Assembly (NCBI GenBank): GCA_041750195.1
Contig: JBGSZX010000063.1
Coordinates: forward strand, 35,131 to 99,130
DNA: 64,000 nucleotides
Origin: Bdellovibrionota bacterium
Lineage (GTDB): Bacteria > Bdellovibrionota > UBA2428
Direction of reading: 5' to 3'
In this document: one piece after another, positions 48,964 through 57,957 of the stretch
How positions within the stretch are numbered: position 1 is the stretch's first letter
Layout of the letters: each line of letters begins with the position of its first letter
Translations under genes and position numbers: made by a program
The notes under the pieces: generated by a model
The model's input: the letters and a program-made list of their open reading frames with translations, nothing else
The model's database searches: none
Told to the model about the DNA's origin: nothing

Positions 48964-49950
48964 CTAAAAAGAACTAAAAGCTCGCACTTCGTTTAACGAT
49001 TTTACTCCTTTTAGACACATCATGAGTCTTTCGAGGCCAAGGGCAATGCCTCCAGCTTGGTCAATTTGATCAAGGGCACCCAAAAAACTTTCATCTAGCT
49101 CTGGTACGTTGCGGTGGGGGTGTAGTTCTTTTCGTTTCGTCATATCTTCAAGGCATCGGCTTCTTTGTTCTACAGAATCGGTAAGCTCACCAAAGGCATT
49201 GGCCAGCTCAATCCCCTGAAAGTAAATTTCAAAACGTTCACACAAATACTCACGGCCTTTTATTTTCCTTGAGAGGGCGGCCTGAGAGGCTGGGTAATCT
49301 TTTAGAAGAACAAGATTTTTGTTTGAAAAAGCGGGTTCAATTTTGCTTGCGATGAGGGCATTAAAAGCCGTGTCGAAGTCCCATTTTAAATCAAGATCCC
49401 GGTGGCCTTTTTCAAAGGCAATCTTACTGAGCAAAGCCTCGTCGCCATTTTTTAGGATGGATTCCAGATCAATTTTACAAATTTCTTGAAAGGCCTCACA
49501 GACATCTATGCTTTCGATGCTCTTCCACTGACTGGGATCCTTGGCATGGCGATCTGCTAAATAGGTAAATAGTTCTGAGCAATCCTGAGCGATATCCATG
49601 TAACTGCCTGGGTGCCTGTACCATTCAAGCATCAAAAACTCAGGCTCATGAGTCTTGCTGATTTCGCCATTTCTAAAACTGGGTGTGATCTCAAAAATTT
49701 TATCAAGGCCAGTCGCAAGAGCTTTTTTGAGGTGATATTCGGGCGACGTTGCTAGAAAAAGTGTTTTTACTGATCCAGAGCTCATGCTGGGAATAAATTC
49801 GGACTCAAAATACTCAAGGTGGGGTTCAAGACCTGGATTGCTCACGAGCAAAGGCGTATCGATTTCAATAAATCCATTCTCATAAAAATAGTCGCGCAAA
49901 TCCCGAATAAACTTCTGGCGCCACACTAAGATGTCTTTAAGCTTGTCCAA
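48964..49950 (-). CDS. epmA: EF-P lysine aminoacylase EpmA (GenX/PoxA)
   Basis: Truncated LysRS-like: TSPEYHLK, FRNGE...HEPEF.MLEWY, GIELANAFGELTD, GIALGLERL. Confidence 0.93.
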   Translation of the reverse strand: MDKLKDILVWRQKFIRDLRDYFYENGFIEIDTPLLVSNPGLEPHLEYFESEFIPSMSSGSVKTLFLATSPEYHLKKALATGLDKIFEITPSFRNGEISKTHEPEFLMLEWYRHPGSYMDIAQDCSELFTYLADRHAKDPSQWKSIESIDVCEAFQEICKIDLESILKNGDEALLSKIAFEKGHRDLDLKWDFDTAFNALIASKIEPAFSNKNLVLLKDYPASQAALSRKIKGREYLCERFEIYFQGIELANAFGELTDSVEQRSRCLEDMTKRKELHPHRNVPELDESFLGALDQIDQAGGIALGLERLMMCLKGVKSLNEVRAFSSF

Positions 49951-49979
49951 GGTCTTTCTCCGCTTTATACCCTTGAGTT

Positions 49980-51134
49980 ATGGCGGAGACGGCTTTGACT
50001 GTCAGTAATTGGGTCCTATTTTTTTCGGTCTCATGGGACGCGGTGGATCGCGTAACGGAGCTTGTAAGCGCACGCCCAGGTTTTTTGGGTCTTGAGGAGC
50101 TTCCCGATGCCGACTCAAATCTTTACGGCACCAGCGATGAATTTGAAGTTTTGGAATTTGGCTCGGATGCTGCAAAAAAATGTGCCGATTGGTTAGAGAG
50201 CGGAGATTTCCAAAAAAACCGTTCCTCCAAGGCTTTCGTAAAAGTATATTTTGAGAGGGGGTTGCCGTCTGCCATCGAAAACATCTCGGAGTGGAAAGAA
50301 TTTTTTTCTGCGGAAAAGTCTATAGAAAGTTTAACAGAAGAAGACATCCAAATCATTTCATGGCAACCCTTGCCGGATGAAGATTATTTAGCAAATTATC
50401 GCAAACAAGTTAGGGGCCAGGCCTTCGGAAAAAATCTATGGATTGGCCCTCCGTGGGAAGTGCCACCTTCAGAGAAAGATATATTTTTTGTTGAACCCGG
50501 CATGGCCTTTGGGACGGGTGATCACCCTACAACTCAAATGTGTCTTGAGATTTTGGAGTCCCTGTCTTCTGACAAGGTCGAGGATCCTTTGAAGATTTCC
50601 AAGACGCCCATTTATGATATTGGAACGGGCACGGGCGTGTTGGCATTGGCTGCGCGCAGATTTTTCCCAGAACGCTCATTGATTCTCACGGATCTTGATC
50701 CGCTTTGTGGCCCCGAGGTTAAAAAAACTTTTGAACTTAATAAAACTTCAATGCAAAATGTGGAACTTCGCTTGGGAGCGGCGGCAGACTTAAAAAGCTC
50801 TGGCGTTGTCCTTCTGGCAGAATCGGGCAAAGAACAAATTCATTTGCTCCACAACATGTGGCCCCAAAGCAATCTGATCATTTCTAATATTTATGCTGAA
50901 GTTCTTCAGGGACTTTTGCCTGAATTAGCGGCTCTTTGTTTGCCCGGCGCCTATTGGGTTGTGAGTGGCGTTTTAGAAAGCGCGGCCTCTAAGACCTTCG
51001 ATAATGAGGCCTCAAAATATTTTGAGCTGCTAGATGCCAAAAGTTCCATTGTTGAAGAAGCTCAATTAAGCCGAGATCAAGGCCTTAATGCGAAGCAACA
51101 TGTCTGGTTAGCCCGTTTATTTAAGCGTCGCTAA
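49980..51134 (+). CDS. prmA: Ribosomal protein L11 methyltransferase
   Basis: PPWE, EPGMAFGTGDHPTT, DIGTGTGVLA, SNI.A. Confidence 0.88.
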   Translation: MAETALTVSNWVLFFSVSWDAVDRVTELVSARPGFLGLEELPDADSNLYGTSDEFEVLEFGSDAAKKCADWLESGDFQKNRSSKAFVKVYFERGLPSAIENISEWKEFFSAEKSIESLTEEDIQIISWQPLPDEDYLANYRKQVRGQAFGKNLWIGPPWEVPPSEKDIFFVEPGMAFGTGDHPTTQMCLEILESLSSDKVEDPLKISKTPIYDIGTGTGVLALAARRFFPERSLILTDLDPLCGPEVKKTFELNKTSMQNVELRLGAAADLKSSGVVLLAESGKEQIHLLHNMWPQSNLIISNIYAEVLQGLLPELAALCLPGAYWVVSGVLESAASKTFDNEASKYFELLDAKSSIVEEAQLSRDQGLNAKQHVWLARLFKRR

Positions 51135-54601: not shown

Positions 54602-54678
54602 AATTTACATTCTATCGAGTGCCGGGCCCTGGTGTAAGAGCCAATTCTTTGGAGCAGGCAAAAAAAATGACGCAAAAT

Positions 54679-54720
54679 AAAAAAGGGGAGGATTTCATTT
54701 AAGAAATCCTCCCCTTTTTT
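54679..54720. terminator. Rho-independent terminator downstream of rpsR (T-tracts on both strands)
   Basis: AAAAAAGGGGAGGATTTC-ATTTAA-GAAATCCTCCCCTTTTTT. Confidence 0.9.
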
Positions 54721-54742
54721 ATCAAAGTTGAGTTTGTATTTT

Positions 54743-54835
54743 CGTAGATTATTCAGCAATTATCCGATGCTGAATAATCGCTAGCTTACTCAGCAATTAT
54801 CCGATGCTGAATAACCGTAGATTATTCAGCAATTA
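54743..54835. repeat. 2.5 tandem copies of a ~36-bp palindromic unit derived from the rpsR 3' end
   Basis: TTATTCAGCA-ATTATCCGA-TGCTGAATAA units at 54743-54778 and 54779-54815; partial third copy overlaps the rpsR stop. Confidence 0.9.
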
Positions 54836-55193
54836 ACGGTGCAAGAAAGCCTAGGGCGCGAGCTCTTTTGATGTGTTGAGAGAGCTTGCGTTGATTTTTG
54901 GCGCTAACACCAGAAACGTGACGAGGAACAATTTTGCCAGTTTCAGACACGAATCGGTTCATAACCTTCATGTTTTTGTAATCAAGAACTAGGGTTTTAT
55001 CCATAATGAATGGACAAACTTTGCGTCGACCAAATCGACCACCACTACCGCCGCCGCTTCCACCGCGGCGAGGACGTTCAGAACGACCGTCGTCAGAAGG
55101 CTTAGAATCTCTATTAGAGTCTCTGTTTGAGTCTCTATAGCTTGATTCTTTGCTGTCGGATTTTGATCCGTATGGAGGATTATTATTTTCCAT
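54822..55193 (-). CDS. rpsR: 30S ribosomal protein bS18 with ~50-aa disordered N-terminal extension
   Basis: RRKVCPF, LDYKN, FVSETGKIVPR..SG.SAK.QR, IKRAR..G; start placed at MENNN. Confidence 0.95.
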   Translation of the reverse strand: MENNNPPYGSKSDSKESSYRDSNRDSNRDSKPSDDGRSERPRRGGSGGGSGGRFGRRKVCPFIMDKTLVLDYKNMKVMNRFVSETGKIVPRHVSGVSAKNQRKLSQHIKRARALGFLAPLIAE

Positions 55194-55302
55194 TCTTCTT
55201 CGCCTTTCCAGCTTCAATGCGTTTCTTGATACGCTCTTTTTTCTTACGTTGAGCGGCCTTTTGTTTCACTTTTTTAGTCAATCGGTTGTCGTCGCGACCC
55301 AT
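55183..55302 (-). CDS. Unannotated 39-aa highly basic protein
   Basis: MGRDDNRLTKKVKQKAAQRKKKERIKKRIEAGKAKKNGK*; AAGGA SD 8 nt upstream; overlaps the rpsR start by 11 nt. Confidence 0.7.
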   Translation of the reverse strand: MGRDDNRLTKKVKQKAAQRKKKERIKKRIEAGKAKKNGK

Positions 55303-55407
55303 ATTATATTCCTTAAAATTAATCAGTTTCCATCAAGGCAAATGCCTGTTGAGCCGGAACTTCTAGCGAACGGGCTCAACAAGGTCAAGCTTTTTGCGGA
55401 GCGACCC

Positions 55408-56046
55408 CTATAAGAATCGTCCCGTAAATAAAAGGTCTTTGGTTTCGGCTCTGCGCTTAAGCTCGATGATTCGTATCGCTACATTGTCATCTAGGTCTTG
55501 GCCATCGCCCATCATCACGTTGATCTCGGCATAAATGCGTCTGCCATAGAGATTATGGTGGGTGAGGTAAACCATCACCTTGGGATCGGTCCAGTCGTCC
55601 TTGGTGAGGATGCGTTTGCCTTTGGCGAGGAGTTCATGGTCACAAGCTGAATAAAATTCAACATTTAGGGCCCCAAAGTTTGGAGAATCGCGATGGCTAG
55701 TTTGTTGGATAACAATGTAGACCCCGCGCGACTCGCTAAGCCAAACACCGTTGATCTTAAATCGTCCAGTCACATCTGGCCAAGGAACGATGCCCTGGGG
55801 AGAAACGGGGCTATGGGCGTCTAGAATTTTGTCTCTGGACGTCAACATAGAATCGTTAACGTTACATTCTGCAGCAGGAAAAAGCCCAAAAGGAGTTCCG
55901 GCATCGCCGCTGCCACCCAAAAGCCAATTCTTCATGGGTTTCATTCCCATGGAAATACTTGTTGTTGAAGTTAGGCAAACTATGGCAAATGCCATGAAGC
56001 CAAACAGACGACCCTTCCAATTATTCTTTCCGAACAGACCCTTCAT
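55408..56046 (-). CDS. Hypothetical secreted protein
   Basis: AAAGGGG SD, N-terminal signal-like segment, no recognised domain. Confidence 0.7.
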   Translation of the reverse strand: MKGLFGKNNWKGRLFGFMAFAIVCLTSTTSISMGMKPMKNWLLGGSGDAGTPFGLFPAAECNVNDSMLTSRDKILDAHSPVSPQGIVPWPDVTGRFKINGVWLSESRGVYIVIQQTSHRDSPNFGALNVEFYSACDHELLAKGKRILTKDDWTDPKVMVYLTHHNLYGRRIYAEINVMMGDGQDLDDNVAIRIIELKRRAETKDLLFTGRFL

Positions 56047-56097
56047 TTCAAACCCCCTTTAGGTTTTGTACCAATTTAAACTCTTTCCAAGATCCGA

Positions 56098-57957
56098 TTA
56101 GAGATCTTTCGGTGTAAGGCCTTGGTTACGTGGCGCTACGTCCGAAATCCGAGATGAAATATTAACTTTCATAGACGGATTGAAATAATATCCCTTCGAG
56201 CCGTTCATAATATAACGACTCTCACGGGGGTTGGGCTCTAGGAGTTTTCTGAGCCGGTTGATATTGATGTATATATTGTTGTCGTGGCGAAGTGGGTTGT
56301 ATTCTTGTCCCCAAATTTCTAGCGCCAATACTTCTTTGGAGAATTCCTTCCCCGGAGTTTCTGCCAATAGAAGCAATATTTTCATGAGAGTAAATTTATT
56401 GTGGAACGGAATCTCTCCTAGATGCTTTTCGCGCACATAGTTAGAGTTTCTGTCGATTTCAATGTCGACACTTTGATTAGGAATAAAGTGGAAATCGTCA
56501 AAGAATTCATTCACAAATCGCTGACCGTGAGAATCTAAGTTTCTAAGCTCATTGCTCCAGTCGTCGTAAGAATCATATTTAAAGCGGGCTAAAATAATTC
56601 TTTCGGGTCTGGCGTTCAATTGATTGATCAGTCTTCGTATCTTTTGATCATCGTCTTCAGAAGATTTAAGTCCAAGTTTTCGTTCTAAAACTTTTCGGGC
56701 TAGAGCTGCTCGCAAATAAAGTCTGTCGAAAGAACTTTGTTTTGCAATTTCCATAGTTTTATTTACTTTAAGGAGGGCTTCTTGATGAAAACCAGCAACT
56801 GAATCGAGTCTCGCCAAGAGTTCAAGGCAAGAGGCTTTGTGGCGCAGGATATTGCGCTCTCGATAATAGGCCATGGCTTCTTCAAGCATGCTGCGCGCTT
56901 CATCGAGCTGAGTTGACTCTCCGCCACGAATTAAAACTTCGGCCTTTAAAAGACGAAGACGCATGATGTCGCTTTGTTTGTTTTCTCTAACGGCGGCAAC
57001 TACAAGCTTGTCTATGATTTCATCGGCCTTTTCGTATTCACCCATGCGAGTGTAGAGAAATGCCATGCCGCGCAGGTAGCGTTTGCCGTAGTATGAGTTT
57101 TCATCCATTCCAGAATGAACAAGAACTTTTTTGTAACACTCTTCGGCCTGAACGTAATGTCCCGAAATGGTGTGAAGTTCGGCAAGTGTAAGGTTTGCGC
57201 GAATGTTAACTCTCCAAAACTGAATGCTTTGAGAATTGTGACTAGCGAGTTCTAGGTAAATGATGGCTTTTTCTTTATCTTCAAGGGCGGCGTAGCAAGT
57301 TCCTAAGGCCCATAAAACATAATGATAGAAGGGGCTGTTTTTATTTTGGCTGAAAACTTCTAAAGCTTCGGTGTACGCGTTGAGTGCTTCATTGTAGAGC
57401 CCTTTTTTTCTTAAGGAATCTCCACGTAAGGTGTGGCAATTTCCAAATGCGTAGGAAAATCCTGAATCTTGAGCGATTTTTTCAAGGACAGGTAGCTCAG
57501 CAAGAACTTCGGAATATTTGCCTTCTTGGCGTAACACTTCGAGTAAACCAAGTTTTACAAAAAAGTTGAGTTTATCATTTCCGATTTCTTTGGTTAACGT
57601 TAAGGCTTCATCGTAATTGCGACGAGCTTTGTTTTGATCTCCAAGATAACACCAGCCAGTTCCGATAGCATAAAGACATTCAGCAAAGGCAGATTTTTCA
57701 TTGGGAGTTTCGACGGGAATTTTTTTGATTGATTCGATATAAGAAGGTGCGCTGTCGAGATTGAATGATTCACCAGCAATTCGAATTAAGTGTCCAAAGG
57801 CTTTCAGTCTGGCTTCGTTGGTTCCGCTTCCAGAATCTACAAAGGTTTCGAGAGTTTCTTTTGCTTCTTTGGTCTTACCTTGCAAAATAAGCTCTACAGC
57901 TTTTGCTAATTCGGGAACTATTGAAGTTGTAGTGGTGTTATTTTTTTTAACTTCCAT
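56098..57957 (-). CDS. TPR-repeat protein with C-terminal OmpR-like winged-helix DNA-binding domain
   Basis: Multiple TPR helices; ILLLLA..PG..FSKE.L...IWG...NIYININRLRKLLE.NP...YI.....GY. Confidence 0.85.
   Translation of the reverse strand: MEVKKNNTTTTSIVPELAKAVELILQGKTKEAKETLETFVDSGSGTNEARLKAFGHLIRIAGESFNLDSAPSYIESIKKIPVETPNEKSAFAECLYAIGTGWCYLGDQNKARRNYDEALTLTKEIGNDKLNFFVKLGLLEVLRQEGKYSEVLAELPVLEKIAQDSGFSYAFGNCHTLRGDSLRKKGLYNEALNAYTEALEVFSQNKNSPFYHYVLWALGTCYAALEDKEKAIIYLELASHNSQSIQFWRVNIRANLTLAELHTISGHYVQAEECYKKVLVHSGMDENSYYGKRYLRGMAFLYTRMGEYEKADEIIDKLVVAAVRENKQSDIMRLRLLKAEVLIRGGESTQLDEARSMLEEAMAYYRERNILRHKASCLELLARLDSVAGFHQEALLKVNKTMEIAKQSSFDRLYLRAALARKVLERKLGLKSSEDDDQKIRRLINQLNARPERIILARFKYDSYDDWSNELRNLDSHGQRFVNEFFDDFHFIPNQSVDIEIDRNSNYVREKHLGEIPFHNKFTLMKILLLLAETPGKEFSKEVLALEIWGQEYNPLRHDNNIYININRLRKLLEPNPRESRYIMNGSKGYYFNPSMKVNISSRISDVAPRNQGLTPKDL

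Follow-up and report, generated by a model that had tools for sequence, protein, structure and literature searches.

The locus raises the question of whether a very short gene directly in front of rpsR, the gene for ribosomal protein bS18, encodes a ribosomal protein of its own. Within the window, the whole stretch of 64,000 nucleotides that was analysed, this small gene occupies positions 55183..55302 of the minus strand. Its product is a Lys/Arg-rich protein of 39 amino acids, exactly the translation given in the preliminary description, with 18 lysine or arginine residues (46%) and four aspartate or glutamate residues. The gene is genuine, conserved and single-copy. Our favoured answer, to which we assign a probability of roughly 60%, is that it encodes a new, lineage-specific small protein of the 30S subunit, with an rRNA-binding helix of the kind found in bS22 and bS24.

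The expression signals named in the preliminary description are present. The gene has its own Shine-Dalgarno sequence, AAGGA at 55310..55314 on the minus strand, 7 nt 5' of the ATG, and across the family of homologous genes a Shine-Dalgarno-like word precedes 139 of 205 unique members. Further upstream, a likely sigma-70 promoter spans 55360..55388 (minus strand), consisting of TTGACC at 55388-55383, a 17-nt spacer and TAGAAG at 55365-55360. This site is absent from the list of a consensus promoter scanner, which instead reports TGGAAA-18-TATAAT at 55332-55303 (3 sites versus 1.2 expected). In the six loci aligned, out of 16 from the bacterium's own taxonomic family, TTGAC is invariant and is followed downstream by a -10-like A/T stretch; in two of the six, the ATG lies very close to the -10 region, which would give a near-leaderless message. 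The inverted repeat that had been described across the promoter (55348..55380; GTTGAGCC at 55380-55373 and GGCTCAAC at 55355-55348) exists too, but it was set aside as non-significant: it folds no better than shuffled sequences (z -0.69), is recognisable only in a same-genus genome and is probably incidental.

Downstream, rpsR (54822..55193, minus strand; PF01084/TIGR00165) encodes a 123-residue bS18 that is extended N-terminally by low-complexity sequence. The rpsR ATG (55193) falls within the final 11 nt of the small gene, so the reported overlap between stop and start is real, and is of neither the 1-nt nor the 4-nt type. A perfect hairpin of 20 bp with a T run behind it (54677..54722, minus strand), absent from a terminator scanner's list, probably terminates transcription of the two genes intrinsically. 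The genes rpsF and rplI lie together on contig C19, away from rpsR. The small gene directly precedes rpsR in all 16 own-family genomes, overlapping or abutting it in eight and separated from it by 22-90 nt in the other eight. Translational coupling, as had been proposed, is therefore not supported as a conserved trait, whereas the proposed two-gene operon with S18 holds throughout the own family but is specific to that lineage, most carriers having the small gene among unrelated neighbours.

Several further features surround this unit. Three 36-nt palindromic REP-like repeats (window 54745-54853, spacing 37 and 36) run from the end of rpsR towards the terminator hairpin. Upstream, most own-family loci contain a regulator with TPR and winged-helix parts (56098-57957) and an ORF of 212 aa with no family assignment (both within window 55408-57957), so that the gene neighbourhood is conserved on this side. 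Further downstream, at a distance of about 4 kb from rpsR (window 48964-51134), prmA and a class II aminoacyl-tRNA synthetase-like gene, which we take to be EpmA-like, are arranged divergently. Where bS18 is linked to the small gene, it carries long low-complexity extensions, N-terminal and D/R/G-rich in the own family, and C-terminal or at both ends in Oligoflexia loci (L103, L125 and others).

The small gene belongs to a family, encoding basic proteins of roughly 35 residues, that reaches well beyond this genus. Used alone as query, the protein matched ORFs in 18 of 61 relatives, all of them short and sharing the same start; a profile search returned one match per genome in 153 of 301 own-phylum genomes, and a model of 115 members likewise one per genome in 83 of 151. 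In the own phylum, presence is nearly all-or-none by family, with the gene found in f1 (13/13), f5 (6/6), f9 (26/27), f10 (13/13), f13 (8/10) and f14 (6/7), and the 115-member model giving no match in f2 (0/5), f4 (0/25), f7 (0/13), f12 (0/11) or f15 (0/3). A broader model still gave no match in five genomes of families without the gene, and no diverged copy was found in the DivIVA region of three such genomes. Searches centred on three loci of the pattern scan described below reached other phyla, whose names here are inferred labels. The Oligoflexia-type phylum (that of G310) has the gene in 78 of 81 genomes, Myxococcota in 52 of 151 with the broader model (41 with the narrower one) and Planctomycetota in 5 of 151.

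Additionally, a pattern scan of GTDB contigs with residues 1-11 recovered at least 120 loci. The matches listed include Bdellovibrionota, Bacteriovoracaceae, Oligoflexales, Kofleriaceae and Nannocystaceae, and a few from Planctomycetota, Acidobacteriota and Spirochaetia; in 119 of 120 loci among the matches listed, the same basic helix follows these residues. This continuation shows the small gene to be more than a chance ORF, as does the fact that hundreds of genomes each hold a single homologue whose match begins at model position 1. At E<=0.001, 237 clusters (50% identity) match the family, whose members are called 'hypothetical protein' wherever the source gives a name. Pfam and NCBIfam searches with the protein, 16 members or 115 members yielded no meaningful match, and no chain in the PDB matched the family in sequence, whether the query was the protein or one of three alignments. 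Foldseek returned 0 matches at E<=10 for the AlphaFold model, a result that is uninformative for a single helix. A literature search covering few subscription papers found none on the small-gene family or on the ribosome structure of Bdellovibrionota or Myxococcota. The family appears to be undescribed.

Conservation is concentrated at particular positions. In the 115-member profile (alignment A3), the most constant residues are G2 (93%), G4 (85%), D5 (76%), R7 (85%), K11 (97%), R15 (78%), Q18 (90%), K22 (97%) and R24 (82%), followed by a variable tail. AlphaFold predicts coil, or an arm, for residues 1-9 and a helix of 29 residues for 10-38, with a mean pLDDT of 88. Selection on the protein is purifying. 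Pooling 58 disjoint pairs from the 205 unique genes (70-99.9% nucleotide identity) gives a dN/dS of 0.22, and restricting the count to codons 12-30, which lie outside the search pattern, gives 0.27 over 62 pairs; 10 of 13 differences from the same-genus genome fall at third positions. Furthermore, codon use resembles that of ribosomal-protein genes (z 2.5, p 0.005). A score this high was seen at 2 of 300 starts of ordinary genes and in 5 of 300 internal windows, the median of the ribosomal genes themselves being 1.6. As reference, 28 ribosomal-protein genes were taken from the cluster found by way of L2, other gene names being read from sequence. Such bias marks high expression, not ribosomes, and the small gene is probably highly expressed. 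Single copy, purifying selection and high-expression codon bias are all traits that the family shares with ribosomal proteins.

A second link to ribosomal genes comes from another lineage. Among the best-scoring 30 of 78 Oligoflexia-type loci, rpsR lies directly upstream of the small gene on the same strand in 21, and rpsT lies downstream in 15, adjacent in eight and after a gap in seven, five of these seven having rnhA in between; nine of the 30 have neither link. Judged from gene order, this differently arranged association with rpsR and rpsT would strengthen the idea of a ribosomal protein. In five other genomes checked, rpsR was variously in its canonical operon, joined to rpsF as a fusion, in divergent orientation to rpmB, or on its own, and because its placement varies in this way, its pairing in two orders with the small gene does not reflect the inertia of a canonical operon. 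The two linked lineages are related, however, and both arrangements may therefore descend from one. Outside them the synteny with rpsR does not hold: with 33 ribosomal queries and flanks of 1.5-3 kb, no ribosomal-protein neighbour was detected at 43 other own-phylum loci or at 46 Myxococcota loci.

The neighbours at those loci are instead skp, aroK, the mreB region, a CarD-like gene, the DivIVA region, hinT, trpS, aspS, groEL and dnaG. A short variant of the small gene adjoins hinT in 13 of 46 myxobacterial loci (L214-L220, L278-L285), and in L226 the small gene precedes dnaG; the position 5' of dnaG is the usual place of rpsU. A relation to bS21, prompted by the loci before dnaG and hinT, was rejected, as a normal rpsU is present in the own genome. 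Two other observations emerged from these comparisons. One genome (G027, f9) encodes a bS6-bS18 fusion in an ORF of 207 aa (L333:1468-2091, minus strand; PF01250 at 3-92, PF01084 at 147-196), followed by a membrane protein gene and rplI. In six myxobacterial loci (L195, L196, L199, L200, L201, L204), a conserved ORF of 82-114 aa without a Pfam or NCBIfam match sits just upstream of the small gene.

If the product is indeed a small 30S protein, its predicted long helix would be laid into a groove of 16S rRNA, where the near-invariant K11, R15, Q18, K20-K22 and R24 and the G-rich arm could contact rRNA at a fixed site, the variable Lys/Ala tail probably being disordered. By analogy with bS22 and bS24, the protein might stabilise rRNA or help to position mRNA, and it would be dispensable in some lineages. 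For the own family, we picture an rpsR that moved out of the rpsF-rplI operon and now depends on the promoter of the small gene for its transcription, which would match the output of the two. Because the link to bS18 recurs, the platform or the head-body side may be the binding site, a guess that we expect to miss more often than it hits.

How well do other explanations account for these data? One places the protein on the ribosome loosely or conditionally, as a factor for stationary phase, hibernation or assembly, not as a stoichiometric subunit. The evidence for ribosome association is identical for this explanation and for a 30S protein, and a gene that often stands alone with its own Shine-Dalgarno sequence or a near-leaderless promoter, and that whole families lack, would suit such a factor. 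Against this, a promoter and terminator shared with rpsR and a growth-type codon bias suggest an output matched to that of core ribosomal proteins, and we consider a conditional factor rather unlikely.

Alternatively, the protein could bind nucleic acid away from the ribosome, compacting the nucleoid or acting as a general RNA chaperone, with the rpsR link reflecting shared high expression. A content of 46% lysine and arginine, the lack of any ribosomal neighbour at 89 loci outside the two linked lineages and an IHF-beta gene upstream in one locus are in line with that role, whereas a strictly single copy and two links to 30S genes are less so. Moreover, conservation in the 115 members is position-specific and extends to uncharged residues (G2, T/S9 and Q18), which implies a defined site. 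The chance that the protein acts outside the ribosome therefore seems small to us.

A third possibility assigns the family to the pocket of bS22/mS38/eL41 (h27/h44/h45), as a highly diverged relative of bS22 or an analogue of it. Lengths are similar, K11-M12 falls in register, and in the own phylum bS22 exceeds the cut-off only in f15 (3/3; L185-L187), a family without the small gene. In Myxococcota, six of 151 genomes carry both genes against 12.7 expected, for which a naive Fisher test gives p 0.009, kin not being independent. Nevertheless, the kinship with bS22/mS38 suggested in the preliminary description found no backing in profile comparisons. None of the family members tested matched PF08213, hhalign with tool-derived bS22 sequences gave a probability of 0.5-1.4%, which 23 of 100 column shuffles equalled, and the median PSSM z was 0.3; the S-V-[IV]-K-K-R and K-H-K columns seen in aligned bS22 sequences are missing from the family as well. 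The six Myxococcota genomes with both genes (G318, G330, G354, G382, G427, G462) hold them intact, the small ORFs having been read in all six and the bS22 ORFs in four. Mutual exclusion as proof of a shared site was rejected, since the three shared genomes (of 41 and 37) became six with the broader model. Occupation of the bS22 pocket is accordingly quite improbable.

Still less credible is a divergent bTHX in the 30S head. Like bTHX, the protein is tiny and basic, and most family members start with M-G-basic-G-D, the M-G-R-G-D here resembling the MGKGD start that the preliminary description gives for bTHX. Thx stayed below the cut-off in all 151 own-phylum genomes, which may leave the site vacant. 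The proposed kinship fails, however, on the models: none of the 115 members matched PF17070 (Thx) or TIGR04560 (ribo_THX) at E<=10, and in the own genome the bTHX models gave no match at E<=1. The start motif, in addition, appears dispensable, since short variants without G-D-N-R are clear members (PSSM z 7-9). According to the available part of PMC5737520, bTHX binds 16S h41/h42 in the head and is 27 aa in all, shorter than the 29-residue helix predicted for the family alone. Finally, a leader peptide that regulates rpsR in cis through its own translation could be read from the overlap or abutment in eight of 16 own-family genomes, but gene order in Oligoflexia largely refutes it, as the same protein, under protein-level selection, is conserved downstream of rpsR or far from it.

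The proposal of a new 30S protein may extend to DUF6800 (PF20607), which of all named clusters in the ESM Atlas lies closest (0.91; 143-164 shared features; family on 12-24% of members). No family member tested exceeds the DUF6800 cut-off. The alignment of short variants nevertheless matches DUF6800 residues 1-34 without gaps (hhalign 69.8%, E 4e-5), a score that 0 of 100 column shuffles reach, although this control is lenient because column shuffling destroys helical periodicity. With the broad alignment, one of 100 shuffles reaches the score obtained, and with the main alignment hhalign gives 0.6% and the PSSM a median z of 1.4. DUF6800 differs in having a second helix and a P-x-Y-P end, and the match, a sequence likeness, is a lead rather than evidence of membership. 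In the own phylum, DUF6800 exceeds its cut-off only in f4 (12 of 25 genomes), which lacks the small gene, and it does so in none of 151 myxobacterial genomes. By the same logic, DUF6800 becomes a candidate ribosome-associated protein; its genes in f4 have strong Shine-Dalgarno sequences (L261, L266-L276), and a search of the literature for 'DUF6800' found 0 papers. It is conceivable, though we hold it doubtful, that a single undescribed ribosomal protein, at a 30S site that is empty in solved ribosomes, comprises two branches, the small-gene family and DUF6800. Lineages would then have kept either branch, across Bdellovibrionota, Oligoflexia and Myxococcota and, by way of DUF6800, in additional phyla.

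New bacterial ribosomal proteins, such as bS22, bL38 and bS24, have so far come mainly from unexplained cryo-EM density. The small-gene family, in contrast, is an advance prediction, offering a defined sequence to seek in the ribosomes of cultured carriers, the gene being present in records named Paraliomyxa miuraensis and Nannocystaceae ST9. The gene is near-universal in several lineages and yet falls under gene-calling cut-offs. It may also give DUF6800 a function, and a protein located near the decoding centre or the mRNA exit would be relevant, in predatory bacteria, to how translation starts and to antibiotic sensitivity.

Among known systems, bS22, mS38 and Cox24 resemble the family in being about 30-35 aa long, very basic, helical, often unannotated and patchily distributed. 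The available parts of PMC10081302 and PMC10618245 describe bS22 as a basic protein of 33 aa in an rRNA pocket, unannotated in Borrelia, and that of PMC11851116 places the gene for bL38 downstream of rpmB-rpmG. According to PMC10618245, bS22 escaped detection in Borrelia because trypsin cuts proteins of this kind into very small pieces. For bS24, or cS24 (cyanobacterial Ssr3189; COG5794, PF30515), occurrence is reported only in cyanobacteria and algae, and PMC13640635 gives an invariant K9, R14 and N15. Our family departs from this spacing: counted from its invariant lysine, R stands at +4 and Q at +7, position +5 is K (50%) or R (21%), and N occupies +6 in only 15%; it is by such published residue spacing that the two are set apart. 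In architecture they are much alike. bS24 is described, in the parts available of 10.64898/2026.07.03.736309 and PMC13640635, as one N-terminal helix with an unconserved basic tail, encoded outside ribosomal operons. The family likewise combines a single basic N-terminal helix, here predicted, and an unconserved tail with an invariant lysine near residue 9-11, and, like bS24, it is encoded mostly outside ribosomal operons and is missing in some lineages.
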